A stretch of DNA of 64,000 bases from Chloroflexota bacterium (GCA_021789435.1 JAJYJO010000003.1:10812-74811), one strand, 5' to 3'. Shown: positions 5,212-51,621, counted from the stretch's first letter. Notes: generated by a model from the letters alone, not told the origin. Made by a program: numbers and translations.

Positions 5212-5347
5212 GCCCCAACGATAGCGGGCGGCACCGTCGCCTGCCTCACGCGGGACGGCGGCTTGCCCCGGCCCGGCCTCCGGCGTCGGGGGCCGGGGGG
5301 CGGCTAAACTGACCCTGCCTTGTCGCCGCCCCCCCTCGAGGATCACG

Positions 5348-7105: not shown

Positions 7106-7115
7106 GGCCCGGAGA

Positions 7116-8561: not shown

Positions 8562-9065
8562 CCCGGTCCCTGCGCCGAGGTCCTTCGTCGGAGCCGCTGC
8601 CGGAACCCCGGGCCGACGGCGGCCCGCCGTCCGCACAGGTTTCCCTCCGCCCGGCCGGCCGCCCATCGGTCCCGGCCCGCGCGGGCGGGGCGGGCCACCC
8701 TCGCGGGCCGTCCGGCACTTGCCCGCCCCGTCGGGCCGTCCGAAGAATGCCCGTGAGGGGAAGCGAAAGCCCCCCGTCTGATCGGTGGCCAGCCACAGGA
8801 AGCCGCCCGGCCGGCGAGCCGGCGGCCGGGCCCGGTCGCGAGACCGACCCGGAGGGGCCAGGGCGTCGAGCCCGACGTGCGCGTCCCCCAACGCCTGACC
8901 GCCGCCGCGAGGCTTCAGGGGTGTGAAGGCAGGATCGGCATTCGTCGCGCGCGTCGGTCGCGCGACCGGCCCCCGTCAGTCCCCCGACCGGGGCGCCCTG
9001 ACAGCGGCGGCTGCACGAACGGCCACGACGGACCCGACGAGGGGGGCTTCCGCGGAGGGTGTCCC

Positions 9066-35262: not shown

Positions 35263-36825
35263 TCACCACTCGCCTTCCATGTCCCGAAGCTCTTCCTCCG
35301 TGGCGGGACGCTCGGAGGCGCCGATTGCGGCCGCCTTCATCCAGTCCTCGCGGCCGGTCGCCTTGAGGTACCAGACGAGGAGGAGGCCGACGATGAACCA
35401 GACGCCGACGAAGATGACGGCGTAGTTGAACGGCGCCGGCGGCAACGTCCAGGCCTGCGGCTGGAAGGCCAGCGGCTCGCCGCCCACGATGTTCAGCGAG
35501 AAGAGCAGGACGGCGATCATGCCCAGGGTGGACAGGACCGGGAAGAGCGCGTGGCTCACCCAGCTGAACTCCTGCGGTCGCTCGCGGCGGTAGAGCATGT
35601 AGGCAGCGATGTTGCCCAGGGTGTAGATGATCAGGACGACGTACCCGATCATGTAGCCGTCCATGTAGTACTGGTTCTGGTAGGCGGTGACGAGCGTCTG
35701 GCCGCCGCTGGCGGCCGGCGTGGCGAAATAGGCGATCGCGGTCAGGCCAATGGCCGTGCAGACGGCCAGCACCCACTGGGCCATGATCGCGTTGACCGGG
35801 GTCTTGCGCTCGGAGTGGACGCGGCCGAACCACTTCGGGAAGGCGCCATCGACGCCCATCCGGTACCACATCCGGGTGCCGACGTTGGCGCAGGCGATCG
35901 AGACGGCGATGACCGAGCTGACGAGCATCACGAGCAGGATGACCCAGGCGTCGCCCCAGAACTTCTTGGCCAGGGTAATGCCGGGCAGCTCGATTCCAGG
36001 CTTGGTCATGCCGGTGTAGTCGTTCGTGCCCCAGCCGCTCATCACGCCCCACTGGACGATGACGATGAAGATCCCGAAGAGGATCACCGAGCCGATGAGG
36101 GCCCGTGGTACGTTTTTGGTCGGGTTCTCGGACTCCTCGGCCATTGGGGCCGAGCCCTCCCAGCCGGTGAAGGCCTGGATGGCGAAGACGGCGGCGATGA
36201 AGAGGCCCGCCGTGCTGCTGGCGTTGCCAGGGTTGAAGGGCGTCAGGTTGAGCCCGCCTGGACCGGGGTTGGCGAGGCCCCAGAGGCCGAGCAGGAGGAC
36301 GATGATCAGCTCGAAGCCGCCGGTGACGATGAGCGTCTTGCCCGAGAGCTGGACACCCAGGTACTGGATCCCGGCGACGATCGACACGATCACCAGGCCG
36401 AAGACGAGCGGGAACCAGTCCGCGAGGGCGCCCGTCCACCCCAGCGAGCTCGAGATCACGTAGCCGCCGAAGACGGTCACGGCCCCGAGCACGAGTGGCG
36501 CGTAGATGATGTTCAGCCACGAGACCAGGAAACCGGCTCGTGGATGGATCCCCCGGGACACGTAGGTGAAGTAGCCGCCGGCCGACGGCACCGCGCGGGC
36601 CAGCTGGGCGAGCACGATCGCGGTGAAGATCACGATCAGGAACGCGATCGGGTAGGCCAGCGGCGCCGCGAGGCCGGCCTGTGACACGACGACGGGCGTG
36701 TAGAAGAGGGCCGCGATGCCCGGCGCGACCATCGTCAGGCTCTGCATGAAGATCGACGGCAGGCGCAGCGCGCCGGCCTTGAGCTGGGTTTCGGCGACGG
36801 TCACCGACGCCGTGTTTCCGGCCAT
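35263..36825 (-). CDS. APC-superfamily amino acid/amine permease
   Basis: About 12 TM segments; PSAGGYFTYV, AFTGWE....AEE..NP.KNVPRA. Confidence 0.92.
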   Translation of the reverse strand: MAGNTASVTVAETQLKAGALRLPSIFMQSLTMVAPGIAALFYTPVVVSQAGLAAPLAYPIAFLIVIFTAIVLAQLARAVPSAGGYFTYVSRGIHPRAGFLVSWLNIIYAPLVLGAVTVFGGYVISSSLGWTGALADWFPLVFGLVIVSIVAGIQYLGVQLSGKTLIVTGGFELIIVLLLGLWGLANPGPGGLNLTPFNPGNASSTAGLFIAAVFAIQAFTGWEGSAPMAEESENPTKNVPRALIGSVILFGIFIVIVQWGVMSGWGTNDYTGMTKPGIELPGITLAKKFWGDAWVILLVMLVSSVIAVSIACANVGTRMWYRMGVDGAFPKWFGRVHSERKTPVNAIMAQWVLAVCTAIGLTAIAYFATPAASGGQTLVTAYQNQYYMDGYMIGYVVLIIYTLGNIAAYMLYRRERPQEFSWVSHALFPVLSTLGMIAVLLFSLNIVGGEPLAFQPQAWTLPPAPFNYAVIFVGVWFIVGLLLVWYLKATGREDWMKAAAIGASERPATEEELRDMEGEW

Positions 36826-36970
36826 AGAGCTCCTCTCTCCTCCGCCCGAGTGGGGCAGGGCATGGTCCGGGGCGGGGCCGAGGGGCCGCCCGCCTCAAGC
36901 GCCTCGGTCGTTCGTTCCGCGTTGCCCTCCTTCCAGTTGTCGGACGATGTCGGCCGCTCTTCCCGGGCCG

Positions 36971-37933
36971 TCAGAAGATCGCGATCGGGTTCCAGGGCGA
37001 GCCCGTCCCGCCGGGGAGTCGGAGCGGGAGCCCCACGACCATGAACTCGAATCGGCCCTCCTCCTCGCAGGCGCGGGCCAGGTCCTCGAACTGCAGGCTG
37101 TCCGAGGCCAGCATGCCCATGGCCACGATCTGCAGCGGGTGGATCGGGTAGATCATCCCCTCGACCACGCTCGGGACCGCCTCGCCGTCCCCGTCCGGCA
37201 GGAATGCCGCGATCCGCCGCTCGTGCATCCAGGGGATCGTGTCGACGTGCAGCCCGGCCTTGCCCGCGCCGACCGGCGGCGGGTCGTTGCTCCACGCGCC
37301 GAGCTCCAGCCGCCGGCGGTGGTGGCCGGTCCGGTAGACGAGGATGTCGCCCTCGCCGAGGTGGACCCCTTCGGCCCGCTCGACCGCCTCCAGCTCGGAC
37401 CGCGTGACGGCCTCCCCGGGCTCGAGCCACTTGACCCCGCGGTAGCGCGGCACATCGAGCAGAACGCCACGGCCGACCAGGCCGTTGCCGTAGTTCGTGA
37501 TGTCCAGCGTCGTGGCGCCCTTGGTCGTCATGACCTCGAGGGCCGGCTTGCCGTTGTAGGTGAGGCCTTTGTAGGAGATGTGGCAGAGCGCGTCGACGTG
37601 CGTGTGGCAGTCGCCGTGACAGGCCATCCCCAGGAAGTCCAGGGCGAACCGGAGCCCGCTGGAGCCGATGTCGATGTCGTGGCCCTGGGTCACGAAGTGG
37701 ATCGCCTGGCTCGGGTTGTCCGGGCCGGCCACCTTGTTGATGGGGATCTCCATCGAGACCCGGCGGCCGGAGCGGACGAGGCGTGCCGCCGCCCGCACCT
37801 TCTCCGGGGTGATGTAGTTGAGGGTCCCGAGCTGGTCGTCGGGGCCCCAGCGGCCCCAGTTCTTGACCGACTCGAAGATCCGGTCGAACTCCTCGAGGCT
37901 GACCTTCGGGGCCGCCGGGACCGGTGTCGCCAT
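36971..37933 (-). CDS. Cyclase-family (kynurenine formamidase-like) metal-dependent hydrolase
   Basis: NWGRWGPDDQLGTLN, HGDCHTHVDALCH, GRGVLLD, GGTGSPWNPIAIF. Confidence 0.88.
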   Translation of the reverse strand: MATPVPAAPKVSLEEFDRIFESVKNWGRWGPDDQLGTLNYITPEKVRAAARLVRSGRRVSMEIPINKVAGPDNPSQAIHFVTQGHDIDIGSSGLRFALDFLGMACHGDCHTHVDALCHISYKGLTYNGKPALEVMTTKGATTLDITNYGNGLVGRGVLLDVPRYRGVKWLEPGEAVTRSELEAVERAEGVHLGEGDILVYRTGHHRRRLELGAWSNDPPPVGAGKAGLHVDTIPWMHERRIAAFLPDGDGEAVPSVVEGMIYPIHPLQIVAMGMLASDSLQFEDLARACEEEGRFEFMVVGLPLRLPGGTGSPWNPIAIF

Positions 37934-37968
37934 CTTGCGCATGCCTCCTCGGCTCGTCGCCCGGTTCG

Positions 37969-38778
37969 CTAGCGGACGCCACCCGGCACGAGCGGCGCGT
38001 CGAGCTGGCCGGGGACCGGCAGGCCGACGGAGTAGGCGCCGTCGACCACGAAGAACGCACCGGCGACGAAGGAGGCGTCGTCGGAGCAGAGGTAGAGGAT
38101 CGGCCGGGCGATCTCCTCCGGCTCGGCGAAGCGGCCCATCGGCGTCCGGTCGAGGAAGACCTTCGACTGGACGGGGTCGTTGATGACGAACCACGAGAGC
38201 CGGGTATTGATGATCCCCGGCGCGATCCCGTTGACTCGGATGCCGTACCTGGCGAGCTCCATGGCGGCGGTGTGCATGATCGCCACCTGGCCGCTCTTCG
38301 AGGTGTTGTAGAAGACGCCCTCCTGTTCGGGCTGGAAGGCGTTCGTGGAGGAGACGATCACGATCGCCCCGCCGTGGCCCTCCCGGACCATCTCCCGGGC
38401 CGACTCCTGGACCGAGAGCCAGGTCCCCTTGAGGTCGATCCCGATCTGCTGCTCCCAGGACTCGTCCGTCCCCTCCAGGAAGGGAACGAAGTCGGCGATC
38501 CCGGCGTTGGCGACCATGATGTCGTGCCGGCCGAAGGCATCGACGCAGGCCTTCACCGCGCCCTGGTTGGCGGCCCGCTGGGAGACGTCGCCCTCGTGGA
38601 CGACACACCTGCCACCCTTGGCCCGGATTCCGGCGGCGACCTCCTCGAGCACGTCGGCGTGCCAGCCGAAGAGCACCACGCCGGCGCCCTCGGCCGCGAA
38701 GGCCTCGGCGGTGGCCCGACCGATCCCCCGGCCGGCTCCGGTCACCACGACGCCCTTGCCCTCGAACCGCTTGTCCAT
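37969..38778 (-). CDS. Short-chain dehydrogenase/reductase
   Basis: TGAGRGIG, ANAGI, YNTSK, RVNGIAPG. Confidence 0.93.
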   Translation of the reverse strand: MDKRFEGKGVVVTGAGRGIGRATAEAFAAEGAGVVLFGWHADVLEEVAAGIRAKGGRCVVHEGDVSQRAANQGAVKACVDAFGRHDIMVANAGIADFVPFLEGTDESWEQQIGIDLKGTWLSVQESAREMVREGHGGAIVIVSSTNAFQPEQEGVFYNTSKSGQVAIMHTAAMELARYGIRVNGIAPGIINTRLSWFVINDPVQSKVFLDRTPMGRFAEPEEIARPILYLCSDDASFVAGAFFVVDGAYSVGLPVPGQLDAPLVPGGVR

Positions 38779-38819
38779 CTGACAATCTCCGATCTGCATG
38801 GCGCGAGGGACGCGACGCT

Positions 38820-39983
38820 TCAGCCGGCGAGCAGTCCGCCGTGGCCGGGCCCGCGCGGGATCACGGGCCAGATGTCGATCACGACGTCATCGCGGACGAC
38901 GTGGTAGGCGTCGTACCAGTTGACGGTCCCGGGCGAGTAGCCGGGGATGAGGGCCACGCTGGCGCCGACCTTGAGCGTGGATCCCTGCCCTGCGGCGAAG
39001 ATGCCGTGCTCCTCGTCAAAGCGGAACGACTCGAGCTCCGGATGGCCGACGATCGTCGCCAGGGCGCCGGCGCCCATCGACTTGTTGCCGGCGTCGACGA
39101 TGACGCGGTCCGGCCGACGGCTGATGACGGTCGCCTGGACGGTGAGGGAGTGGTCGAAGCCCGGGGCCATGTGGCCGTGGAAGTTGTCGATCACGCAGTA
39201 GGTGCCGGCCTGGATCTCGGTGATCCGAGGGTTGGAGGCCGTCCACTCCCAGGTGCCGGTGCCGCCCGCGGAGAGGACCCCGACCGGGATGCCGGCCGCG
39301 GCGATGGCGTCGGCGACGCCGGTGAAGAAGTTCATCGCGGTCTGCTGCTTCTCGAGGCGCAGGTCGTGCTCCGGGGTGAGCGAACAGTGGCCCTCGTAGC
39401 CGGTCAGCCCATCGAAGCGGAGGCCCGGCAGCTCGACGACCCCCCGGGCGAGGGCGACCGCCTCCTCGGCCGTGTCCACCCCGCAGCGGTCCATGCCCGT
39501 GTCCACCTCGATCATGACGCCGAGCGTGCCGCCGGCGGCGACCGCGGCGGCCGAGAGGGCGCGGGCGTTGTCGATCTCGTCCACCGCGACCCGCAGCCTG
39601 GTCCCTCGGGCGAGCTCGGCGAGGGCGCGGATCTTGTCCGGGCCGGCCACGGTATTGACGACGAAGAGGTCGTCGATGCCGGCCTCGGCCATGACCATCG
39701 CCTCCCAGACGGTGGCGGTGGAGAGCCCGAAGGCCCCGGCCTCCACCTGGCGGCGGCCCAGCTCGGGGCTCTTGTGGACCTTGATGTGGGGCCGGATGCC
39801 GGCCGGCAGCTCGCGCAGGCGGGCCGCCATTCGCTCGATGTTGCGCTGGGCCGCGTCGATGTCGAGGACGAGGGCCGGCGTCACCAGCGCCTCGCGCCGG
39901 CGACCGATCGCCCCGCCGTACTGCGCGCGGACCCTTTCCGCCGCGGCTTCGATCGCGCCGCGCCGCTCACGCACCTCGGTCAT
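38820..39983 (-). CDS. Fold-type III PLP enzyme (DSD1 / D-threonine aldolase-like)
   Basis: TPALVLD, RPHIKVHK, EVDTGMDRCG, GYEGH, GGTGT, EIQAGTY, DAGNK, EEHG; ATG 39983. Confidence 0.88.
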   Translation of the reverse strand: MTEVRERRGAIEAAAERVRAQYGGAIGRRREALVTPALVLDIDAAQRNIERMAARLRELPAGIRPHIKVHKSPELGRRQVEAGAFGLSTATVWEAMVMAEAGIDDLFVVNTVAGPDKIRALAELARGTRLRVAVDEIDNARALSAAAVAAGGTLGVMIEVDTGMDRCGVDTAEEAVALARGVVELPGLRFDGLTGYEGHCSLTPEHDLRLEKQQTAMNFFTGVADAIAAAGIPVGVLSAGGTGTWEWTASNPRITEIQAGTYCVIDNFHGHMAPGFDHSLTVQATVISRRPDRVIVDAGNKSMGAGALATIVGHPELESFRFDEEHGIFAAGQGSTLKVGASVALIPGYSPGTVNWYDAYHVVRDDVVIDIWPVIPRGPGHGGLLAG

Positions 39984-40237
39984 CACAGCTCCCTGGTGAG
40001 CGGCCCGTCCATGCGTGGCATCGAGCGGGGCGACCGGCCGGCTCCCCACCCGAACGTGTGGCGCATGGATCTGCCGACGGGTCTCGGCCGGAGGTCCGGG
40101 TGGCGGTTCCACCCGGACCCGCCCGAAACTCGGGGCCGACCCGAGCCTCCCTCCGCCGCCCGGGCCCGTCGGCCCCGATCTCCCGAGAACCGCCGACGTC
40201 CCGATCCCGATCGGAGCGGAGACATCGATCCGCGGAG

Positions 40238-40267
40238 AGAATAGGCACCGTTGCCCGTCGGCGTCAA
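40238..40267 (-). promoter_or_regulatory. Sigma70-type promoter for the PLP enzyme-permease operon
   Basis: TTGACG (40267-40262), 18-nt spacer, TATTCT (40243-40238). Confidence 0.55.
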
Positions 40268-40329
40268 GAAGTTGCGACCGCCCGCACGTCCCTGCCCCCG
40301 GAGCCTTCCCCACGCCGGCTGGGGCGTCC

Positions 40330-41310
40330 TCAGGACACCCGGTCCAGCAGGGCGAGCGCGGTCGCCTCGTCGGTCACGAGCACCTCCAGGCAGCCGCTCG
40401 CCAGCGCTCCGCGGATCGCCTCGACCTTGGCCGCCCCCGCGGCGATGCCGACGACGGTGGGAATGGCCGCCAGCTCGGGCCACTCGATGGCGACGGTGCG
40501 CTCGTCGAGCTGGCCGGCCGGCCGGCCGGCGGCATCGAAGAAGCGCGAGTTCATGCTGCCGACCGCCCCGGCGGCGAGGAGCCGGAGGCGGTCCTCGGTC
40601 GTGATCTGGGGGGCCCGCAGGAGGGTAGCCTCGGGTCGCATCTCGCCGATCCCGACCAGGGCGAGCTCACTGTTCGCGGCAAGGGCAAGGGCCGCCCGGA
40701 CGGAGCTGTCGCTGAGGATCGCCGTCCTGATCGACGGCGAATCCACGATCGAGGGCGCATGGAGGTAGTGGACGCGGCTGCCCGGGTAGAGGCCGGCGAG
40801 GTGGCGGACGAGCTCGTGGCCCTGGATGCCCGGCACCGGGTCGCTGAGGCCCCCGGCGAGTTGGGTGATCAGCAGGTCCGAGACGATGCCCGGCTCCATG
40901 AACCGGATGACCGCCGAGAGCGTGGTCCCCCAGCCGACGCCGATCCGCATGCCGGTCCGCAGGAGCGTCCCGACATACTCCGCCGCGACCGCCGCCAGCG
41001 CCTGCAGGTCGTCGCGCTCATCGGTCGGGGCCACGATGGTCCGCGACAGCCGATACTGGTTCGCCAGCTGCCGCCCAAGCTCCACGTTGCGGCGCCGGGG
41101 CGGCCGGATCTCGACCCGGACGATCCCCTCGTCACGGGCGCGCTTGAGGTAGCGCGAGACGGTCGAGGGGTCCAGCCCGAGGTCGCGGGCGATCTGCACC
41201 TGGGTCCAGCCGAGCAGATAGAACCGTCGGGCCACCTCGGTCAGGTGGTCGACGCCGCGCACCGCCGCCGCCGGCCGGCCTGGTCCGTCCTCGGTCTCCA
41301 TCGCCGCCAC
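40330..41310 (-). CDS. SorC/LsrR-family sugar-phosphate-binding transcriptional regulator
   Basis: VARRFY..G.TQ.QIARDLG....VSRYL..ARDEGIVRV; IGVGWGTT, LVGIG, LVTDE. Confidence 0.92.
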   Translation of the reverse strand: MAAMETEDGPGRPAAAVRGVDHLTEVARRFYLLGWTQVQIARDLGLDPSTVSRYLKRARDEGIVRVEIRPPRRRNVELGRQLANQYRLSRTIVAPTDERDDLQALAAVAAEYVGTLLRTGMRIGVGWGTTLSAVIRFMEPGIVSDLLITQLAGGLSDPVPGIQGHELVRHLAGLYPGSRVHYLHAPSIVDSPSIRTAILSDSSVRAALALAANSELALVGIGEMRPEATLLRAPQITTEDRLRLLAAGAVGSMNSRFFDAAGRPAGQLDERTVAIEWPELAAIPTVVGIAAGAAKVEAIRGALASGCLEVLVTDEATALALLDRVS

Positions 41311-41457
41311 CCCGTTTCCGGATCCGGGTCCCAGCTCCCGGCGTTCACGGTCCGCAGGCTACACCGCCACCCCGCTCGGTCGAAGGCCCGATCGTCACCG
41401 GCCGGGCCCCGGCTGGAGCCTGGGCCGTCGGTCGCGGCCGCCCATCGGGCCGAGTAT

Positions 41458-41492
41458 GGCACGGAGTTGACCGGACTGGCACAATCTTTCCG
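41458..41492 (+). repeat. 35-bp promoter/operator element, copy 1
   Basis: GGCACGgagTTGACcgGACTGGCACAATCTTTCCG; 30/35 identical to the reverse complement of 48471-48505. Confidence 0.85.
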
Positions 41493-41590
41493 CCGACGGC
41501 CAGTCGGCTCCCGTCCCGGCCCCGGGACGAAGGGCCGCGCCGTTCGCGCCCGACGCCCGGGTTCCCCGGCGAGCGTGTGGAGGTGGACCA

Positions 41591-42115
41591 ATGCAGCCCC
41601 CCGAGAAGCCGTACCACATCAGCCAGATCGCGGTCGTCGTCAAGGACATCGACGCGGCGATGAAGACCTACCACGAGCTCTTCGGCTGGGGTCCCTGGAA
41701 CGTCTACGAGCACGTCCCGCCGAAGCTCCATGACCAGCATCTGCACGGCAACCCGGCGGATTTCTCCATGATCGGGGCGGAGTGCGAGGTCCAGCCGGGG
41801 CTCGTCTTCGAGCTGATCCAGCCGCTGGACGGCGATTCGATCTACAAGGAACACCTCGCCAGGCACGGCGAGGGCGTCCAGCACATCGCCCTGATGCATC
41901 ACAGCCAGGAGGAGTCGGACGCCTTCAAGAAGCGGTTCCAGGACGCCGGGTTCGAGATGACGATGGGCGGCCGGATCGGCGAGACGATCGAGTTCTACTA
42001 CATGGATACGACTCCGGCGGTCCACTTCGTCGCCGAATCCGGATCCGGCCATGCCATCGAGCTGACCCCCGTCCGGCAGTACCCGCCGGCGGATGCCACG
42101 GCCGGGACGAAGTAG
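41591..42115 (+). CDS. VOC-family protein (methylmalonyl-CoA epimerase/glyoxalase-like)
   Basis: QIAVVVKDIDAA...GWGPW, ELIQP..GDSIY.EHL..HGEGVQHIA. Confidence 0.88.
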   Translation: MQPPEKPYHISQIAVVVKDIDAAMKTYHELFGWGPWNVYEHVPPKLHDQHLHGNPADFSMIGAECEVQPGLVFELIQPLDGDSIYKEHLARHGEGVQHIALMHHSQEESDAFKKRFQDAGFEMTMGGRIGETIEFYYMDTTPAVHFVAESGSGHAIELTPVRQYPPADATAGTK

Positions 42116-42150
42116 CGCCGACGCGCCCCGCGTGATCCGGGGGCACATGC

Positions 42151-42957
42151 ATGCGTTTCGAGGCCCTGCGGGCGCGAGCCTGCGCCGCCAACCGGGCGAT
42201 CGCCGACGCCGGCCTGGTCATCCTGGCCTTCGGCAACGCGAGCGCCCTGGACCGGGCCGCCGGCGTCGTGGCCATCAAGCCGAGCGGAGTGCCCTGCGCG
42301 GGTCTCCGCCCCGATGAGGTGGTGGTCGTCTCGCTGGCCGACGGCCAAATGATCGAGGGTGAGGGGCGGCCGTCCTCCGACACGCCGACGCACCTGGCCC
42401 TCTACCGGGCCTTCCCGCGGATCGGCGGCGTCGTTCACACCCACTCACCCCAGGCCACGGCCTGGGCCCAGGCCGGCCGGCCCATCCCGTGCCTGGGGAC
42501 CACCCACGCCGATCACTTCCACGGTCCGGTCCCGGTCACCCGGCCGCTGCAGGCGGCCGAGGTGGCCGGCGACTATGAGGCCGGCACGGGCCGCGTGATC
42601 GTCGAGTGCGCCATCGGCGGCGGGCTCGATCCGGACGAGGTGCCGGCAGTACTCGTCGCCTCACACGGCCCCTTCACCTGGGGCCCGGACGTCGAGGGCG
42701 CCGTCGAGAACGCGATCGCGCTCGAGGCGGTGGCCGGCATGGCCCTGCGCACGATCCAGCTGGCGCCCGACGCGAGGGCGATCGCCGGCGGCCTCCTCGA
42801 GCGACACTACCGGCGCAAGCACGGCGCGGCCGCCTACTACGGCCAACCGGCCGGGAGCCCGGCCAGGGGGGTCGGGCCGCTCAGCTCAGACCCGCGACCC
42901 CATACAGCGGACGACCTCGAGCGGCTCACGGCCGGTCCGGAAGGCATGGGCGAGTGA
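42151..42957 (+). CDS. araD: L-ribulose-5-phosphate 4-epimerase
   Basis: GNAS, IKPSG, PSSDTPTH..LY, VHTHS, GTTHADHF, SHGPFTWG, HG..AYYGQ. Confidence 0.9.
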   Translation: MRFEALRARACAANRAIADAGLVILAFGNASALDRAAGVVAIKPSGVPCAGLRPDEVVVVSLADGQMIEGEGRPSSDTPTHLALYRAFPRIGGVVHTHSPQATAWAQAGRPIPCLGTTHADHFHGPVPVTRPLQAAEVAGDYEAGTGRVIVECAIGGGLDPDEVPAVLVASHGPFTWGPDVEGAVENAIALEAVAGMALRTIQLAPDARAIAGGLLERHYRRKHGAAAYYGQPAGSPARGVGPLSSDPRPHTADDLERLTAGPEGMGE

Positions 42958-43986
42958 GGCGGCGCAGGCGAAGGTGTCGCCCCGCCGGACGGCGAAGCTG
43001 CCGAGGTCGCCCTCGATCGCCCCGTCGCCGGCGGTGACCACCCCGACGTAGTAGCGGCCGTCCTCCAGGGCCAGCTCGGTCTGGACGTCCACGCGGCTCG
43101 CGTCGAAGAACGGGGGCCTGCTCGTCGCCGAAGAGGCGCACCTCCCGGTTGCCGCCCGTGTCACGCACGACCGTCGGCACCTGGCGCGCCCGGTCCAGGG
43201 CGGCCTGCCGGTCCGTCGGCGTGTAGTCGATCATCTCCAAAGCGAGGTCCCAGCCGAGACCCATCGTCGCGCCGTCCTGGTCCACCCCCGAGGTACTCCA
43301 CTCCGGGATGACGATGAAGTCGGTCGGCTCCTGGATCTCGATGAAGAGGAGGCGTGGGCCCAGGAAATGGGGCACACTCGCGGTCGCCACGAAGACGTCG
43401 CCCGGCTGGACTTCCGTGTGGTGGAGCATGGCCCGCAGCTCGGCCACGTCCTGCCGCTCGACCGCCGCCCGGAAGTCGTCCTTGGTTGCCCCGGGCTGGA
43501 ATCCGATCCCGGCATGGGCCGGCTCGGCCCATTGCCCGGCGTCTCGAGCAGGATCCAAGCCTCCTGCTTGCCGAAGCGCGACCCCAGGTGCCGCTCGGCC
43601 CAGGCTCGGGAGGGGTGGGCATGGAGCGGGACCGGGCCGGAAGGCGCCAGCAGCTTGACCAGGACGCCCGTGGTCACCCCCCAGCGCTCGACGAAGGGCG
43701 CTCCAAGCATCTCCTCGGGGTAGCGCTCGACGAGGGAACGCAGGGTGAAGGGTCCCAGGCCCTCGATCTCCACCCGGCTCAGCCCCTGTGGGCGGCCATC
43801 CGGGTCGGCGTTGCCCGCCTCCGTTACCGAGCCGACCCAGTCCTCCGACCACCAGTCGTCGGGGCTGCCTCCCAGGCCGCGGAACCGGCGGGTCAGCGAG
43901 CCACCCTCGTAGAAGCGGTAGAGGGGATGGTAGGCGAGCGACAGAGGCCGCCGGATGGCATCGTGTAGAGCATCGTGGTCGGGCAT
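42886..43986 (-). pseudogene. Cupin sugar-phosphate isomerase (mannose-6-phosphate isomerase type I-like), interrupted by two frameshifts
   Basis: SEDW, LVKLL, PLHAHP, GKQEAW in one frame; PGDVF...PH...EIQEPTD in another (shift near 43529); C-terminus back in the first frame (shift near 43114). Confidence 0.75.
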
Positions 43987-44070
43987 GCGCGCATGCTCGC
44001 ACGACCGGGCGGGGGATGGCTGACGCCCGGGCGGTGCCCGGGCGTCAGAAAGGTCGACCTGGCCCGCCAG

Positions 44071-44799
44071 TCAGAACGAGACGAGGGCGGGCGCCACCTG
44101 GGTCAGCATGAAGCGGGCGTTCTCGGCGGCCGCCTTGCCGTCGAAGACCGCGCTGCCGGTCACGATGATGTTCGGCCCCATCGCCGCGACGCGGGCCACG
44201 TTCTCGCGGGTGATGCCCCCGTCCACCCCGAGCAGGATCGGCCGACCGGAGCGGGCGATCACCTCCTTCGCCTCGGCCAGCCGTCGCTCGCTCGACTCGA
44301 GGAAACGCTGGCCGCTCCAGCCGGGGTTGATGGCCAGGACCAGGACGTACTCCAGCTCGTCGAGCAGCGGCTCGATCGCGGCCACGGGGGTTCCCGGGTT
44401 GAGGGCGACACCCCGGATGATCCCCCGCTCCGGGTCGTTGGCGTTGGTCGCCACGCCGAGCGCCTGGAGGACACGGTGGGGATGGCGGGTACTCTCGACG
44501 TGGAAGGTGACCAGGTCCGCGCCCGCCTTCACGAAGTCGCCGAGCTTCTCGAGCGGCTCGTCGATCATGAGGTGGGCGTCCTTGAGCAGGACGGGCGAGC
44601 GGATCGCCCGGATGAGGGGCGGGCCGACGGTCATCGTCGGGCAGAAGACGCCGTCCATGACGTCGATGTGGACCAGTTCCACGCCGGCGTCCTCCAGGAG
44701 CCGGACCTCGGAGCCGAGGTTGGCCAGGTCCGCGGTGATGATCCCGACCGTGAGGTGCGGCCGGCCGTCGAGCAGGGGCAGATGCGCGGTGGTCGCCAT
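44071..44799 (-). CDS. Ribulose-phosphate 3-epimerase family protein (LsrE-like)
   Basis: HIDVMDGVFCP..TVGP, DAHLMI, FHVES, LNPGTP, NPGWSGQ, VDGGI, VTGSAVF. Confidence 0.88.
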   Translation of the reverse strand: MATTAHLPLLDGRPHLTVGIITADLANLGSEVRLLEDAGVELVHIDVMDGVFCPTMTVGPPLIRAIRSPVLLKDAHLMIDEPLEKLGDFVKAGADLVTFHVESTRHPHRVLQALGVATNANDPERGIIRGVALNPGTPVAAIEPLLDELEYVLVLAINPGWSGQRFLESSERRLAEAKEVIARSGRPILLGVDGGITRENVARVAAMGPNIIVTGSAVFDGKAAAENARFMLTQVAPALVSF

Positions 44800-44808
44800 G
44801 GCCGGCCC

Positions 44809-45708
44809 CTAGACCCCGAGGGGCTCCGGGACGGGGGCGTGGCGGAGGGTCTCGTAGAGCTCGAGGGCCTGGCGCGGCGGCAGGCCCTCGTGGACGGCCT
44901 TCCGGACCGCGGCGAGCATGGCCCCGGGCGCGTCGCTCTGGAAGATGTTGCGGCCCATGTCCACGCCCGCGGCGCCCTCCTGGACCGCCCGGTGAGCCAT
45001 CTCGAGCGCCTCGAGCTCCGGCAGCTTCTTGCCGCCGGCCATCACGATCGGGACCGGGCAGGAGGCGGTGACCGTCTCGAAGTCCTCATCGCAGTAGTAG
45101 GTCTTGACCACCTGGGCGCCGAGCTCGGCGATGATCCGGCAGGCCAGGCGCAGGTACTTGGCGTCCCGTGTCAGCTCCCGGCCGACCGCGGTCACCCCGA
45201 GGACCGGCAGGCCGTAGCGCAGCCCGGCGTCGACGAGGCGGGTCATGTTGTGGACGGTCTTGGTCTCCATGGGGCCGCCGACGAAGACCTGGACGCCGAC
45301 GCCGCAGGCGCCGAGGCGCAGGGCGTCCTCGACGTCGAGGGCGATCTCCTCGTCGGAGAGTTCCTTGAGGATCGAAGGGCCGCCGGACGCCCGCAGGAAG
45401 AAGGGGACGCGGCTCGCCGGGGGCACGACCGAGCGCAGGATGCCCCGGGTCAGGAAGAGCGCGTCGACCTGCGGCACGAGCGGCAGGATGCTGACGTCGA
45501 CTCGCTCGAGACCGGTCGTCGGACCCTGGAAGTAGCCGTGGTCGATGGCCAGCATGACCGTCCGCCCCGAGGCCGGGTCGAAGACCCGGGCGAGGCGGTT
45601 CTGCATCCCCCAGTCGTAGGCGCCTGAGCCCTTCAGGAAGAAGGCCTCGCGGCGCTGGGGGACGCCCTCGTAGAACTGCTTGAGTTCGCTGCTGTCGGCT
45701 TCCGGCAT
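44809..45708 (-). CDS. lsrF: 3-hydroxy-5-phosphonooxypentane-2,4-dione thiolase
   Basis: FFLKG....[50 protein letters not shown]. Confidence 0.92.
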
Positions 45709-45778
45709 CGGGTTCCTCCCGGCTGATGGTCCCCTGGCTGGGCGATGGATGACGCGGCGAGCGGTCGGTCGGGCCGGC

Positions 45779-47344
45779 TCAGGCGCCGGCGGGCCACCAG
45801 AGCGGCCGGACGAGGCCACTCTCGGTGATGGCGAGGAGGCGCAGGTAGACCTCCCGCCAGCGTTCGTAGAGCTGTGCGTAGGCGGCGTGCGTGGTGGAAT
45901 CCGGCTCGTAGGTCTTCTCGAAGCGGGCGACGCGTTCGGCCAGGCCTGCCAGGTCGTCGTGGAGGCCGGCCCCGACCGCCGCGCAGAGGGCTGCCCCGAG
46001 GGCCGTCGATTCCCTGACGACCGGCACTTTGACCCGGACCCCGAGGACGTCCGCGACGATCTGCGGCCAGAGCCGGCCCTTGGAGCCCCCACCGGTGAAG
46101 ACGATCTCCTCGACTGGCTGGCCGGTCAGGCTCTCGATGATGCGGAGATGCCCCAGCGAGGCGTAGGCGGCGCTCTCCTCGACGGCACGGATGCATTCCC
46201 GCCGCCCGGAACGGGCCGGGTTCTCGATGTTGAAGCCGATGAAGGCGGGCGACGACTGGACCCAGCGCTTGGCATCCATCACGTTTGAGAAGACCGGCAC
46301 GATGCCGTTGGCGCCGGGGGCCACGGCGGCCGCCTCCTCCTCCATGACCACGAACGGGTCCACGTCACGCCGGGCGGCCTCTGCCTTCTCGAAGTCGCAG
46401 AAGGCATCGCGGAACCAGCGCATCGTGAGCCCGCCGTAGAAGGCGATCCCTTCGGCCATCCACTGGCCCGGCAGGACGTGGCAGAGCGTGCGCAGACGCG
46501 CCTCCGGATCGATCAGCGGGCGATCCACCACCACGGTCGTCTGCCAGAAGCTGCCCCCGACGAGGGTGACCTCGCCGGGGCGAGTCCGGCCGATGCCGAG
46601 CAGCCCGAGCTGGGTGTCGGCGCCACCGACGACGACCGGCGTCCCCTCGGAAAGGCCGGTCTCGGCGGCCGCACGGGCGGTCAGGGGCCCGAGCACCGTG
46701 CCCGGATCGCGGACCGTCGGGAAGACGTCGGGCGAGAGCCCGCACAGCTCGATGATCTGCGGCGACCACGTCGCGCGGGCCAGGTCGAACATCCCCGAGC
46801 TTGCGCCCACCGAGGGATCGGTCCCATACACCCCGGTCAGCTTCGTGAGGACCCAGTCGCTGAGCATGCCGGCGTGGGCCACGCGGGCGAAGAGTTCCGC
46901 CTCGTGGCGCTGGATCCAGAGCAGGCGGGCCGGGGAAGTGATCGAGACCCAGTCGCCCCCCTTGTCGTAGATCCGCCGGGCGGCCCCGGAGCGGACCAGC
47001 TCGGTCGCCTCCTCCGCCGCCCGCGAGTCGACGTTCGGGCAGGCCCAGAGCTCCCGGCCGTCGGCGTCGTACAGGACGATCCCCTCGCGCATGCTGGTGC
47101 TGCTGACCGCGGCGATCGCGGAGCCGGACAGGCCGCTCTCGGCGAGCGCCTCGCGGGTGCAGGCGCAGATGAGCTGCCAGTTGCCCGCCGTGTCGAAGAC
47201 CTGCGAGCCCGGCACCCCCGGGAGCGCGGCGTGCGACCACTCTCGCTGGGCCATCGCCACCTGGTTGCCGTCGCCATCGAAGACCAGGGCGCGGCAGCTC
47301 CCGGTCCCCAGATCCACCGCCATCACGTACTGGCGCTCAGGCAT
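45779..47344 (-). CDS. lsrK: FGGY kinase, autoinducer-2 kinase-like
   Basis: [52 protein letters not shown], terminal LWWPAGA; adjacent to lsrF. Confidence 0.82.
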
Positions 47345-48416
47345 GGGCGGCCACCTTCTCCAGCGTGGCCCGGTTGGCCACGTTCAGGAGCGGCTCGCCG
47401 GTGGCCAGCCGCTCGATCTCCGCGGCGGCCATCTCCCCGCCGTGGGCCAGGGTCTCCTGGGTGGCGCCGCCGATGTGGGTGGCGAGGACCACGTTGGGGG
47501 AATCGAGGAGGCGATGGCGCCGTCCGAGCTCGGGTGGCTTGCTCAGATCGGGCGCCTTCACGACGTCGAAGGCGGCTCCCGCCAGGTGCCCGGAGCGGAG
47601 GGCCTCGTGGACGGCGTCCTCGTCGAGGAGCGTGTCGCGGGCCGTGTTGATCACGAACGCGCCGTCCTTCATCCGGGCGACCTGCTCCCGGCCGATCATC
47701 CCCCGGTTGTCGGCCGTGGCTCGGGCGTGGAGGGAGACGAAGTCGGCAGCCTCGAGGAGGTCGTTCAGGTCCGTCGGCTCCGCGCCGACCTCCCGGATGC
47801 GGGCTGGGTCGACGAACGGGTCGTGGGCCAGGACCCGCATGCCGAGGGCTCGTGCCACGACGGCGACCCGCCGGCCGATCTGGCCGAACCCGACCAGCCC
47901 AAGGACGTGGCCTTCCAGGTCGTGACCCAGCCACTTCGCACCCTCGTAGTTGTCCCGACCAAGCTCGCCCCCGCCCTCGAGATACCGCATCACCTCCGGC
48001 AGCCGGCGGGCGAGCATGACCATGAAGGCGATCGTCAGCTCGACCACGGCCTGGGCGTTCTTGCCGGGGGTGACGACGACGGGGATGCCGCGCTCCGTGG
48101 CGGCTTCCATGTCGACGTTGACCGGGCCGCCGCGGGCGACGCAGATCAGGCGCAGCTCTGGGGCGGCGTCGATTACCTCGCGGGTCACCGGCGCGCCCTG
48201 GACCACGAGCACCTCCGTCCGATCGAGACGGTCGATCACCTGGCGCGGGCTGCCAAGGAACTCGCGGATTCGCTGCTCCGACGGCGTCGTCGGGCGGAAG
48301 TCGGGCTCGTCGTCGACGTCGAAGCAGGTGACGTCATGTCGGTCGCAAAGCCGCTCGATCGCCGGGCCGAGCGCCCGCCAGGGGCAGAAAGAGTCACCGG
48401 CCACCAGGATCTTCAT
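47337..48416 (-). CDS. D-isomer-specific 2-hydroxyacid dehydrogenase family protein
   Basis: RGGPVNVD, PGKNA.AV.E, GLVGFGQIG, SLHAR, INTAR, HIGGAT. Confidence 0.9.
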   Translation of the reverse strand: MKILVAGDSFCPWRALGPAIERLCDRHDVTCFDVDDEPDFRPTTPSEQRIREFLGSPRQVIDRLDRTEVLVVQGAPVTREVIDAAPELRLICVARGGPVNVDMEAATERGIPVVVTPGKNAQAVVELTIAFMVMLARRLPEVMRYLEGGGELGRDNYEGAKWLGHDLEGHVLGLVGFGQIGRRVAVVARALGMRVLAHDPFVDPARIREVGAEPTDLNDLLEAADFVSLHARATADNRGMIGREQVARMKDGAFVINTARDTLLDEDAVHEALRSGHLAGAAFDVVKAPDLSKPPELGRRHRLLDSPNVVLATHIGGATQETLAHGGEMAAAEIERLATGEPLLNVANRATLEKVAAHA

Positions 48417-48470
48417 CGTTCGGCCCCCTGCGCATCATGATTCGGGGCACTGACGCCCGCCGGAGGCGCC

Positions 48471-48505
48471 CGGAAAGATTGTGCCAGTCACGTCAAGGTC
48501 GTGCC
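48471..48505 (-). repeat. 35-bp promoter/operator element, copy 2 (inverted relative to copy 1)
   Basis: Minus strand GGCACGaccTTGACgtGACTGGCACAATCTTTCCG, 54 nt upstream of ATG 48416. Confidence 0.85.
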
Positions 48506-48540
48506 GCGGCGCGGGGCACCGGCGCGACCGATGGCCCGGG

Positions 48541-49329
48541 TCACAGCTCCGCGTTGACGATGAAGCCCGCGTCGGTCAGCAGGGTCGCGCAGGTGACATA
48601 ACTGGCGTCGTCGCTCAGCAGGAAGGCGATGGCGCCCGCCATCTCCTCCGGCTCGCCCGGCCGATGGATCGCGATCCGGTCGATGTAGTACTTCCACACC
48701 TCGGGTGCGGCGTCGAACATGGGGGCGCTCATGTTGGTCTTGATCCAGCCCGGCTCGACGGCATTCACCCGGATCCCATGGGCGCCGACAACGGAGCCGA
48801 GGGCCTTAGCCCACATCGAGATGCCGCCCTTCGTCGCGCAGTAGGCCGTCTGGTATGGCGCGCCGACGTGGGCCGAGATCGAACTGACGCAGACGATCGC
48901 GCCGCCATTGCCGAAGGCCTTCATCTGCTTGGCGGCCTCGGTCGTGACGACCCACGTGCCGCGCAGGTTCGTCTCGCAGATCGCATTGAAGTCCTCGAGC
49001 GTCGCCTCGTCCCAGGCCAGGAACGGGTTGATCGCGGCGTTCGAGACGACGTAGTCGAAGCGGCCGCCGCGCTTGGCGACCTCCTGGACCATCTCGACGA
49101 CCTGCTGCGGGTTCCGCATGTCGGCGACGACCGGGAAGCCCTGGCCGCCGGCCTCCTTGATCCGCCGCAGCGTCTCGGTCGGGTCGCCGGTCGGCTTCTG
49201 ATTGACCCCGACGAGGGCACCCTCTGCGGCCAGGCGGACCGCGATCGCCTGGCCGATGCCGTTGGTGGCACCGGTGACGAGGGCGACCTTCCCCTCGAAT
49301 CGCTTGCCGGTGATCGGAGTGGCTGCCAT
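48541..49329 (-). CDS. Short-chain dehydrogenase/reductase
   Basis: TGATNGIG, SNAAI, YCATK, RVNAVEPG; ATG 49329 after AGGAGG. Confidence 0.92.
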   Translation of the reverse strand: MAATPITGKRFEGKVALVTGATNGIGQAIAVRLAAEGALVGVNQKPTGDPTETLRRIKEAGGQGFPVVADMRNPQQVVEMVQEVAKRGGRFDYVVSNAAINPFLAWDEATLEDFNAICETNLRGTWVVTTEAAKQMKAFGNGGAIVCVSSISAHVGAPYQTAYCATKGGISMWAKALGSVVGAHGIRVNAVEPGWIKTNMSAPMFDAAPEVWKYYIDRIAIHRPGEPEEMAGAIAFLLSDDASYVTCATLLTDAGFIVNAEL

Positions 49330-49362
49330 GCCGGTCCTCCTTCTCCGGCCCACCGGGCCGGG

Positions 49363-50121
49363 TCAGTGCATCCCGCGGCCGCCCGCCACGATGAGCAGCT
49401 CGCCGGTGATGAAGTCGGCGTCCGCGGAGGCGAGGAAGAGGGCCGCGGCGGCGATGTCGCCGGGTGTGCCCCACCGCCGCAGCGCCGTCTCGTCGAGGAT
49501 CCGCTGCTGGGTCTCGGGATCGATCTCCTCCACCATGTCGGTCCGGATCCAGCCCGGGCAGATCGCGTTCACCGTGATCTGGGGCCCGAACGCGAGCGCC
49601 ATGGCCTTGGTCAGGCCGTTCAGACCGGCCTTCGAGACCACGTACTCCGTGAAACGCATCGCCGAGGGGTGGTAGAGACCGGAGTTCGAGGACACGTTGA
49701 TGATCCGGCCGGCCCCCTGGCGGATCATCACCGGCGCGACCTCCTTGGAGCAGAGGTAGGCGCCCTTGAGATTGACGTCGATGGTCCGGTCCCAGTCGCC
49801 CTCGGTGGTCTCGAGGACGCCCTTGGCGACCATGACGCCGGCGTTGTTGACGAGGATGTCGACCCGGCCGAAGCGGTCGAGCGCGGCTCGGACCAGCCGC
49901 CGGACCTCGGCGCTCTGCGAGACGTCGGCCTGGACCGCGAGCGCCTCGCCGCCGGCCGCCTCGATCGCCGTGCCGGCGGCAGCCGCCCCCTCCCCTCCCT
50001 GGATGTAGTTGACGACGACCCGCGCACCTTCGGCGCCGAACCGCTCCGCGATCGCCCGGCCGATCCCCCGCGACGCACCGGTGACGATCGCGACCTTGCC
50101 TGCCAGACGCTGCTCGGTCAT
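49363..50121 (-). CDS. Short-chain dehydrogenase/reductase
   Basis: TGASRGIG, NNAG, YVVSK, VNAICPG; ATG 50121. Confidence 0.92.
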   Translation of the reverse strand: MTEQRLAGKVAIVTGASRGIGRAIAERFGAEGARVVVNYIQGGEGAAAAGTAIEAAGGEALAVQADVSQSAEVRRLVRAALDRFGRVDILVNNAGVMVAKGVLETTEGDWDRTIDVNLKGAYLCSKEVAPVMIRQGAGRIINVSSNSGLYHPSAMRFTEYVVSKAGLNGLTKAMALAFGPQITVNAICPGWIRTDMVEEIDPETQQRILDETALRRWGTPGDIAAAALFLASADADFITGELLIVAGGRGMH

Positions 50122-50331
50122 GCCGTGCCCTCCCAACCCGCAACGGACTCCGACGTGCTCGGGCGCCGACCGCCCTGTCCCTTCCGGCGCCACCTGCGCC
50201 GCGATTCTATGGCGGCGGGCGGGCGACCGCAGGCCGGGTGTGGCAATACCTTGAGCGGTGGCGCACGATCCTTCCGCGTCTCCCCTCAGGGCGCTCGCCT
50301 GCCGCCTCGGCCGGGCCGTGGTCGGAGTCGG

Positions 50332-51570
50332 TCAGTCCGGGAAGGCTTCCGGCCCGCGCTCCGCGAGCTCAAGCGCCTCAGCCGGGGCCTCGATCCGCTC
50401 CGGCGGCAGCCAGCTGAAGGGGTAGCGCGGGTCCTCCAGGGCGGTCGCCTGCCGGGTCAGCCGGAGCGGCCGGAACGTGTCGACCATCACCGCCAGTTCC
50501 TCGGTCGCCTCCTTGCCGATCGAGGCCTCGGCCGTCCCGGGATGGGGCCCGTGGGGGATGCCGGCCGGGTGGACCGTCAGCGATGCGACCTCGACCCCCC
50601 GCCGGCTCATGAAGTTGCCGGCGACGTAGTAGATGACCTCGTCCGAGTTGATGTTCGAGTGGTTGTAGGGCGCGGGGATGGCGAGCGGGTGGTAGTCGAA
50701 CTTGCGGGGGACGAAGGAGCAGACGACGAAGTTGTGGCCCTGGAACGTCTGGTGGACCGGCGGCGGCTGGTGGACGCGGCCGGTGATCGGCTGGAAGTCG
50801 CCGATGTTGAAGGCGAACGGCCAGAGGTAGCCGTCCCAGCCGACCAGGTCGAACGGGTGATGGCGGTAGTGGTAGGCGGTCAGGCGGCCGCCTGCCTTGA
50901 CCAGGATCGTGAAATTACCCTCGTCGCTCTGGGGCGACGATTCCTCCGGCGGCCGGAGGTCGCGCTGGGAGTAGGGGCTGTGCTCGAGCAGCTGGCCGTA
51001 GTCGTTGCGATAGCGGCGCGGCGGCTCGATCTCCGACGGCGTCTCCAGCCAGAGCATCCGCTGTGGGCTGTCGGGATCGGGCTCCAGGCGCCAGGTTGTC
51101 CCTATCGGCAGGACCAGGTAGTCGCCCGGCCCGTAGGCCAGTGGCCCGAAGACCGTCCGGCAGACACCCCGCCCCTGGTGGACGAACAGGAGCTCGTCCG
51201 CCTCCCCGTTGCGATAGAAGGTGCCGAGCGGCGGCGGCCCGGCCGGTCGCACCACGCCCATGGTGACGTCGGCGTTGAAGAGCAGCGGCACGCGACCGGT
51301 CACGACGTCGCCACGCGGGTCGAGGCCACCCGTCTTCAGCAGGCGATGCCGATGCGGGCCCTCCTCCACAGCCGGGTCCGCCTCCACGATCACGCGACCC
51401 GCGGCCTCGATGGCGTGGGTGCGGGTCGGCGGCACCAGGTGGTAGAGGAGCGAGCTGCGGCCGGCGAAACCCTCGACGCCGAACAGCTCCTCGGCCCGGA
51501 GGGTGCCGGCCGAGTCGCGGAGCTGGGTGTGGCGCTGGCGGGGAACCTCACCCCGGCGAACGTAGTACAT
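50332..51570 (-). CDS. hmgA: Homogentisate 1,2-dioxygenase
   Basis: G.VP.QRH, EELFG.EGF, PFDLVGWDG, HQPPPVH, PYNHSNINSDE, HGPHPG, ELAVMVDTF. Confidence 0.93.
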   Translation of the reverse strand: MYYVRRGEVPRQRHTQLRDSAGTLRAEELFGVEGFAGRSSLLYHLVPPTRTHAIEAAGRVIVEADPAVEEGPHRHRLLKTGGLDPRGDVVTGRVPLLFNADVTMGVVRPAGPPPLGTFYRNGEADELLFVHQGRGVCRTVFGPLAYGPGDYLVLPIGTTWRLEPDPDSPQRMLWLETPSEIEPPRRYRNDYGQLLEHSPYSQRDLRPPEESSPQSDEGNFTILVKAGGRLTAYHYRHHPFDLVGWDGYLWPFAFNIGDFQPITGRVHQPPPVHQTFQGHNFVVCSFVPRKFDYHPLAIPAPYNHSNINSDEVIYYVAGNFMSRRGVEVASLTVHPAGIPHGPHPGTAEASIGKEATEELAVMVDTFRPLRLTRQATALEDPRYPFSWLPPERIEAPAEALELAERGPEAFPD

Positions 51571-51621
51571 GGTGCCTCCTGCGGCTTCAGCCGGCGGGCC
51601 GCGGGCGACCCCGCCGCGCAC

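Follow-up and report, generated by a model that had tools for sequence, protein, structure and literature searches.

The 64,000 nt stretch of DNA analysed here (referred to as the window; GCA_021789435.1 JAJYJO010000003.1:10812-74811, from a Chloroflexota bacterium, with positions counted from its first letter) contains a 35 nt element in two inverted copies, each facing a set of apparently catabolic genes. This element is likely to be the binding site and promoter of the adjacent SorC/DeoR-type regulator, placed before each piece of a split catabolic operon. The two copies, with their scores in a position weight matrix (PWM), and the regulator are as follows.

41458..41492, + strand: element copy A, with unit 1 at 41458-41471, unit 2 at 41478-41491 and TGG-CACAAT at 41477-41485; PWM score 44.8; before the VOC/AraD-like operon and divergent from the regulator.
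48471..48505, - strand: element copy B, a predicted two-part operator/promoter like copy A; PWM score 50.4; before the dehydrogenase/LsrK-like/LsrF-like/RPE-like operon.
40330..41310, - strand: SorC/DeoR-family regulator, with an N-terminal helix-turn-helix (HTH) and a sugar-binding domain.

The inverted pair had been pointed out in an earlier note on this DNA, and its coordinates, the 30/35 identity, the 19 nt core and the GGCAC repeat at 20 bp are all confirmed and are far beyond chance. The arms, at 41458-41492 (+) and 48471-48505 (-), are 35 nt long and 86 % complementary (30/35), with 6978 nt between them, and the pair ranks first among the 177 inverted pairs found in 38000-52000. Its five mismatches fall in two blocks, of three and two, and the last 19 nt of the copies are identical; within each copy GGCAC recurs at a distance of 20 bp (41458 and 41478 in copy A, 48505 and 48485 in copy B). 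The 19 nt core occurs exactly twice in the window when up to three mismatches are allowed, as against a mean of 0.01 in 100 shuffled sequences, none of which (0/100) contained two or more matches. Both copies are oriented toward their downstream gene. Copy A is in the gap that separates the divergent regulator and VOC genes, with 98 nt from its end to the VOC start at 41591, and copy B lies in a 124 nt gap between the stop of an SDR gene (48541) and the start of the dehydrogenase gene (48416), with 54 nt from its end to that start.

Outside this locus the element was not found in its own genome, the assembly of which comprises 2,846,837 bases in 156 contigs and is 91 % complete. A 25 nt pattern sought with up to three mismatches in the whole assembly matched copies A and B only, and the reversed control gave zero matches. 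A 41 nt PWM scanned over both strands (2 x 2.85 Mb) gave three matches of at least 10 bits, all at this locus, namely copy B (50.4), copy A (44.8) and a third, weaker site (17.1) that is described below; the maximum in five shuffled genomes was 5.7. A looser pooled-unit model, requiring two units 20 bp apart, picked out the same three sites. The concern that the element might be a dispersed repeat, for which a genome-wide scan had been suggested, is thus not borne out, all three sites lying within 9 kb at a single locus. We regard it as extremely unlikely that the element is a dispersed repeat or the end of a mobile element, an RNA leader element, or an artefact of assembly, as nothing beyond the duplication itself speaks for any of these. 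No Rfam family matched at E ≤1 in 39800-50500, and the leaders fold no better than their shuffles (z -0.24 and +1.99). The earlier worry about assembly finds no support: both copies are spanned in an independent assembly of sequencing run X1 and copy A also in a second sample (X2, record 10), and other assemblies show the same architecture.

Comparison with related genomes gives support to the earlier proposal that the copies are an operator/promoter shared under the neighbouring SorC-family regulator, in that the element precedes orthologous operons in relatives that have an orthologue of this regulator. Such orthologues (E ≤1e-70) are present in 27 of the 401 genomes of the family including its own, or 26 of the 400 others, at 55-74 % identity and in 12 of 49 genera; weaker matches, at 30-40 % identity, were set aside as paralogues. 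The cluster genes were mapped in up to 20 kb around each orthologue. A loose pattern (TTGAC, 8 nt and a CAYART-type hexamer) gave 24 sites in 20 of 29 sources, and 26 of the 29 had one or more matches of 10 bits or more to a PWM derived from these sites, with no more than three per source; there were no matches at this level in G155, L047 and L049. The PWM matches precede VOC, AraD or dehydrogenase genes, and in genus g6 they adjoin the regulator. A Gibbs sampler given no prior motif recovered the element in all 32 of the VOC, dehydrogenase and AraD regions among 50 upstream regions (with a degenerate unit 2 in G155 and G163), and found no coherent motif in the other 18.

Dehydrogenase-upstream copies, like copy B, are found also in genus g9 and in metagenome contigs, and in many genomes the element is single-copy. 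Three genomes of g9 each resemble the window in carrying a pair of inverted copies, separated by about 6.94 kb, and when the eight copies from these four genomes were compared with 60 nt of flank, only a block of about 36 nt was conserved, 16 nt of it (TGGCACAATCTTTCCG) being invariant in all eight. An exact 19-base scan of metagenome contigs gave 29 loci, of which 19 have the unit 1 signature; 16 of these have readable flanks and three are at contig ends, and all of the 16 readable loci adjoin the regulator or precede a VOC, dehydrogenase or permease gene. The ten loci (six distinct sequences) that lack the unit 1 signature also lack cluster genes, and their number is about that expected by chance. 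A search of 60 other genomes with an 18 nt core and up to two mismatches matched only G012 (L003) and G022 (L005), at about 1500-1518; these were rejected as chance matches, as they lie within an orthologous open reading frame (ORF) of 339-342 aa and carry the same two changes.

The similarity of the two copies is apparently the result of constraint, that is, of purifying selection on the site, and not of recent duplication. Pairs from different genera share 27-31 of 35 positions and pairs within the g9 genomes 27-28, and copy B is identical at 31 of 35 to the VOC copies of G183 and G293. Because the cross-genus copies are equally similar, constraint suffices to account for the perfect core, and recent duplication or gene conversion was discarded as unnecessary, the 30/35 of the window lying within the cross-genome range. 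We note a weak gapped similarity between 41412-41440 (+) and 48547-48520 (-), 14-17 nt upstream of the copies, with a score of 29, which 5 of 500 mononucleotide shuffles also attained. The second of these stretches overlaps the stop codon of the SDR gene, and the downstream flanks do not align (167/500 shuffles); the upstream similarity could be the remnant of a longer duplication or could be due to chance.

A table of 30 sites resolves the element into two 14 nt units with six variable bases between them. Unit 1 reads K-G-C-A-n-G-n-n-C-T-T-G-A-C and unit 2 reads K-G-C-A-C-A-A-T-C-T-T-T-C-C; KGCA-N3-TCTT-N2-C is common to both, their consensus agrees at 9-10 of the 14 columns, and together they form a direct repeat with a period of 20 bp, or about two helical turns. 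The sequence TGGCACAAT (TGG-CACAAT), at 41477 and 48486, is the sole TGn-NANNNT motif of either intergenic region (41311-41590 and 48417-48540, 75 % and 73 % GC), and neither region contains TANNNT. A -35-like hexamer is located 17 bp upstream, at the start of unit 1, as TGGCAC or CGGCAC, with TTGCAA in several relatives; where a site has TGCACAAT, the TG stands one base closer. As a side observation, GACTGGC in copy A (41474-41480) can pair with GCCAGTC (41501-41507), 20 nt downstream, to form a hairpin of 7 bp within the predicted leader, a feature of copy A only.

An element of this kind might be essentially a promoter, used by the housekeeping sigma factor through its extended -10 or by an alternative sigma factor, with the regulator binding elsewhere or not at all. 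This would agree with the fact that the only TG-preceded -10-like hexamer of the two intergenic regions lies inside the element, which always points toward the operon, but we consider it unlikely for three reasons. Conservation is highest in CTTGAC, within the would-be spacer, and in TCTTTC, after the -10, neither of which is at a canonical promoter position; the genome has only three sites, belonging to one regulon, and the element tracks the regulator orthologues; and the repeats and their 20 bp period persist in the AraD-type sites of genus g28, in which CACAAT is lost. Those g28 sites keep GCA, CTTG and the period and have TATGCT between the units, and the repeat, not the -10-like hexamer, thus appears to be the common denominator of the sites. 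Because the period persists where the -10-like hexamer is elsewhere, we favour an operator over a promoter alone, and we read the element as a predicted bipartite operator overlapping an extended -10 promoter.

The likeness to a sigma-54 (-24/-12) promoter that the earlier note had remarked on resides in TGGCAC-N5-TT of unit 2, which resembles a -24 half, but it does not hold up on closer comparison. The GC expected at -12 is absent (it is CC in the window), the spacing in TTGC sites is one base short, and the first position of the GG is not kept (G in 16, T in 13 and A in one of the 30 sites). Sigma54_DBD (PF04552) was found in 0/1 own genome (91 % complete) and in 0/5 element-carrying relatives, with the control positive in 4 of 14 known genomes, although incomplete genomes cannot prove absence. 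We thus see next to no prospect that this is a sigma-54 promoter. The matches to PF00158 are weak and were set aside as uninformative, this model being positive in all 14 controls, including archaea.

The regulator matches PF04198 (1.1e-62) at residues 74-322 and HTH_29, HTH_24 and Sigma70_r4_2 at residues 31-75. Its best solved relative is Bacillus subtilis DeoR (8r7y; 2.3e-37 over residues 24-323), ahead of the full-length matches SorC (2w48) and LsrR (4go1), and it is similar to CggR (2okg) in the effector domain only (7.6e-12). With a regulator that has an HTH and a SorC domain, an operator of two parts and about 35-45 bp, and co-occurrence of the two across genomes, the element appears to be an ordinary kind of regulatory element, of the two-part operator class known for the SorC/DeoR family. 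The B. subtilis DeoR operator is about 39 bp long and consists of two halves; it overlaps its promoter (-60 to -21) and is situated between the gene of the regulator and the operon, and DeoR is bound there as a tetramer and released by deoxyribose-5-phosphate (PMC11229326, in the text available); in size, position and two-part layout it matches the element described here as far as that text describes it. The CggR operator of the B. subtilis gapA operon is 45 bp long with two direct repeats and is occupied by a tetramer that places a dimer on each half, according to the same available text (PMC11229326), and it has been called a 'tandem operator' (PMC2943609, excerpt). Its repeat period, counted on the operator as printed in that material, is 20 bp, as in the element here. 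CggR, which belongs to the winged-helix sub-class of the SorC family, differs in having another DNA-binding domain and an unrelated repeat sequence, and it is a much weaker relative of the regulator; its operator is described in the text available as lying downstream of the start (+32 to +77) and acting as a roadblock, whereas promoter occlusion is proposed here.

The genes around the element were mapped by profile searches with Pfam and NCBIfam and are as follows, with operon 2 extending over 42926..48416.

41591-42115, + strand: operon 1, VOC/glyoxalase-fold protein (profile search).
42151-42957, + strand: operon 1, class II aldolase/AraD-like epimerase (AraD subfamily model, 301.7 against a cut-off of 257).
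47337-48416, - strand: operon 2, 2-hydroxyacid dehydrogenase.
45779-47344, - strand: operon 2, LsrK-like FGGY kinase (LsrK equivalog NF008187, 621.1 bits against a cut-off of 528).
44809-~45720, - strand: operon 2, LsrF-like DeoC-fold enzyme (LsrF equivalog NF006081, 452.5 bits against a cut-off of 297).
44071-44799, - strand: operon 2, RPE-like epimerase.
42926-43986, - strand: operon 2, cupin-like gene, read in two frames.
49363-50193 and 48541-49353, - strand: two SDR genes, with g9 orthologues inside the VOC operon.
38820-~39923, - strand: pyridoxal-phosphate (PLP) D-Ser-dehydratase/aldolase-like gene (DSD), downstream of the regulator.
37969-38799, - strand: SDR gene, downstream of the regulator.
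~35287-36830, - strand: APC-family permease, 34 % identical to the permease of metagenome contig L121 and downstream of regulator-DSD-SDR.

The genes of 35287..39923, among which there is also a stretch without assignment between the SDR gene and the permease, form the tail of a single long operon in most relatives. G002 and G163 have a colinear operon, divergent from the regulator, in the order VOC-AraD-dehydrogenase-kinase-LsrF-RPE-DSD-SDR; other genomes are without AraD or without VOC, and genus g28 has two units, VOC-DSD-SDR and AraD-dehydrogenase-kinase-LsrF-RPE. The three g9 genomes, with regulators 71-74 % identical to that of the window, share its broken layout, in which the DSD gene follows the regulator, the VOC gene diverges from the regulator and the dehydrogenase-to-RPE block is convergent with it; in g9 the two SDR genes follow VOC. 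The window thus holds pieces of one ancestral operon (VOC-AraD-dehydrogenase-kinase-LsrF-RPE-DSD-SDR-permease), which G002 and G163 keep in colinear order and which has been broken up in this lineage. The presence of two inverted copies would then follow from the breaking of the ancestral operon in this lineage, with each piece having kept or gained a copy of its own.

Several features of these genes deserve comment. The cupin-like gene matches a single 401-aa ORF of G326 (L073 10505-11710) and has a weak cupin/mannose-6-phosphate-isomerase match (E 0.0055) that is below the cut-off. Residues 1-~153 are read in one frame and ~156-294 in another, which suggests a frameshift near 43500-43530 that would reflect either a pseudogene or an assembly error. 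The APC permease ends the long operon in many relatives (for example L043 2994-4424 and L042 129-1553), and is an unexpected type of transporter for a sugar-phosphate cluster. A variant of the element that stands beside the regulator in genus g6 (L038/G006 9015-9055, L040 1150-1190 and L083 4346-4386) points at an ABC transporter, which in L038 (10637-13220) is made up of two BPD_transp_1 permeases and an ATPase; since the g6 element faces this transporter, the transporters of the regulon would differ among genera. Between the VOC operon and the regulator of L042 (G114, genus g28) there are Dak1, Dak2, TIM-like, RpiB-like and aldo/keto reductase genes (4374-8352). The Dak1/Dak2/TIM-like/RpiB-like set presumably recalls pathways for tetroses or erythrulose.

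The arrangement of the operons bears on a further idea of the earlier note, that the inverted copies might be substrates for inversion of the segment of about 7 kb, whether as a DNA switch or with the present order as a recombination scar. The copies are inverted, the dehydrogenase-to-RPE block is inverted relative to the operon of G002 and G163, and there are metagenome contigs with the same inverted pair at about 6.9-7.0 kb, but on balance we find inversion very unlikely. The window contig carries no serine or tyrosine recombinase, and the matches to Resolvase (C147 and C99) and Phage_integrase (C29, C144 and C85) are on other contigs. In Logan contigs of run X1 (records 1 and 7) each copy is spanned with 0 differences and in the same orientation as in the assembly, and among the joints listed for contigs of four runs none changed strand at the copies, although contigs drop rare variants. 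The VOC copy is beside the regulator in all two-copy loci (the window, G183, G370, G293 and two metagenome contigs, not all of them independent), a single orientation thus being seen in contigs and relatives alike. A flip would moreover leave each operon behind an equivalent element and so could switch nothing, the perfect core is merely 19 nt long, and the many genomes with a single copy of the element likewise lend inversion no support.

The gene content invites comparison with the lsr system of E. coli and Salmonella, in which LsrR represses from boxes in the divergent lsrR-lsrA intergenic region until LsrK makes the phosphorylated inducer (PMC5137460, in the part available). Both have a SorC-family regulator divergent from a target operon, and the kinase and DeoC-fold enzyme here exceed the equivalog cut-offs for LsrK and LsrF; the RPE-like epimerase recalls Salmonella lsrE, described in the available part of that source as 'a putative sugar epimerase' (PMC5137460). 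Pieces of the LsrR box given there, AACAAT and AAGATTTAA, have ACAAT and AAGAT (ATCTT reversed) in common with unit 2, which we take as a lead and not as a test. The box arrangement differs, as does the regulator, which scores 126.4 bits against an LsrR cut-off of 486. No Lsr-type ABC transporter (LsrACDB) and no LsrG was found among the scanned genes of the locus, to which this search was confined, and in their place the locus has the APC permease, the VOC protein, the AraD-like epimerase, the 2-hydroxyacid dehydrogenase and the PLP enzyme. Among the literature matches listed none was relevant to a link of LsrK/LsrF to erythrulose or of lsr genes to Chloroflexi, and the motif may still be published.

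Two further sites of the locus are of interest, the first of them new and the second noticed previously as a weaker match to the element.

50242..50276 (PWM window 50239-50279), + strand: third, weaker two-part site, PWM score 17.1, absent from the earlier note.
40267-40238 (feature 40238..40276), - strand: predicted promoter TTGACG-N18-TATTCT for the D-Ser-dehydratase-like, SDR and permease genes, with a unit-1-like half-site at 40276-40263 over the -35.

The third site is placed in the gap that separates the start of the SDR pair from the stop of the next gene, and it faces away from the SDR genes, for which a TAGAAT -10-like hexamer starts at 50209 on the - strand. Metagenome contig L121 has a full-strength element (2303-2327, -) in the same position relative to the SDR pair and divergent from it, ahead of an APC permease and then the regulator, and this appears to be the positional counterpart of the third site. 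Because of the position of the L121 site, and because the g9 SDR pair is inside the VOC operon, the SDR genes probably belong to the regulon, and the third site would be a weak or decaying operator. Beside it is a 429-aa ORF (50332-51621, -) whose sole match, to the N-terminal domain of homogentisate 1,2-dioxygenase, is weak (1.6e-5), followed by a gene of the fumarylacetoacetate-hydrolase family (51622-52659); the ORF appears to be outside the regulon.

The sequence at 40267-40252 does not fit the two-part model, scoring -19.7 and being in the wrong register, so that in this respect the reported weaker match has not stood; what is present is a canonical -35 with one half-site. TTGACG-N18-TATTCT is the only canonical sigma-70-type match in 39800-50500, and the three g9 genomes conserve it together with an immediately preceding GCAAC-W-TCTTGAC. 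The half-site at 40276-40263 scores 15.2 bits and is about twelfth of the 77 genome-wide matches of at least 12 bits, which is not significant alone. Regulation of this promoter by the same regulator is possible.

The sequence features, the restriction of the element to this locus of its genome, its conservation, the repeat architecture, the association with the regulator and these genes and the rearrangement are direct results of the analysis. As to mechanism, we infer repression rather than activation, and likewise binding by this protein, the tetramer stoichiometry, the transcription start and the effector. The regulator would most likely bind the element as a tetramer, a dimer of dimers with one dimer on each unit, and the bound tetramer would cover the -35-like and -10-like hexamers and so block RNA polymerase at both operons. 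Release would most likely be brought about by the sugar phosphate that the LsrK-like kinase produces, or by another one from the pathway, and would switch on both operons together; as the kinase gene is behind copy B, induction would feed back positively or feed forward. The element could instead be an activator site from which the bound regulator recruits polymerase, and Klebsiella SorC is reportedly an activator. The third site, upstream of the SDR -35 region, would suit such a role, as would the weak -35-like hexamer of copies A and B, but there is no -10-like hexamer downstream of the element in either intergenic region, so that the bound protein would cover the sole candidate promoter. 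The closest characterized relatives, DeoR, LsrR and CggR, are moreover described as repressors in the available parts of the sources (PMC11229326, PMC5137460), and we consider activation quite unlikely.

A number of observations weigh against the element's being the binding site and promoter of this regulator. The search pattern had fixed columns 13-17 and 26-31 of the first PWM, so that their invariance is in part built in; neither the Gibbs run nor the remaining conserved columns carry this bias. Nor do genomes from a single family count as independent, and the metagenome contigs may in some cases be sources of the same metagenome-assembled genomes. The -35-like hexamer of the window is poor (2/6 to TTGACA), and the element is not passed by a simple sigma-70 scan of 39800-50500, although TGG-CACAAT as an extended -10, proposed previously, is still the best available promoter reading. 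The regulator is below the curated NCBIfam cut-offs for both DeoR (202 bits against 420, so that it is not a DeoR equivalog) and LsrR (126.4 against 486), and its DNA recognition is not to be inferred from either protein because of these scores. The left half of the DeoR operator is a palindrome (TTGAA...TTCAA) and its right half a direct repeat, as far as the available source describes them, whereas the element here consists of two plain direct repeats of different sequence. Lastly, the third site, upstream of the SDR -35 region and pointing away, is a poor fit to simple occlusion.

Current understanding is not overturned by these findings, although they would provide a testable operator and regulon for an uncharacterized SorC/DeoR-type regulator in a barely studied, uncultured family of Chloroflexota. 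The regulon would comprise three or four transcription units here and would include transporters in relatives, and purifying selection acting on a binding site would fully account for what looks like a striking 'duplication' within one genome, given that copies from different genera resemble one another just as closely. The more novel part may be not the operator but the regulon, with its LsrK/LsrF-type enzymes, their unusual partners and no Lsr transporter among the locus genes. We suggest tentatively that the element delimits an undescribed catabolic regulon of the Chloroflexota with LsrK/LsrF-type chemistry and a VOC protein in the place of LsrG, possibly a transporter-independent route for AI-2-like (autoinducer 2-like) or related compounds, in which each fragment newly formed by a break in the operon receives a copy of the promoter-operator module. 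Its chemistry, with a similar degree of doubt, could be phosphorylation of a C5 diketo or keto sugar followed by thiolytic cleavage, and its members would include the AraD- and RPE-type epimerases, the 2-hydroxyacid dehydrogenase, the PLP-dependent D-amino-acid aldolase/dehydratase-like enzyme and the APC permease. A gene set of this composition under one operator offers a starting point for finding the roles of LsrK and LsrF homologues outside enteric AI-2 uptake. If the suggestion is true, there would be an AI-2-like route in bacteria of soil and mine water, and a traceable case of a regulon that survived the fission of its operon.

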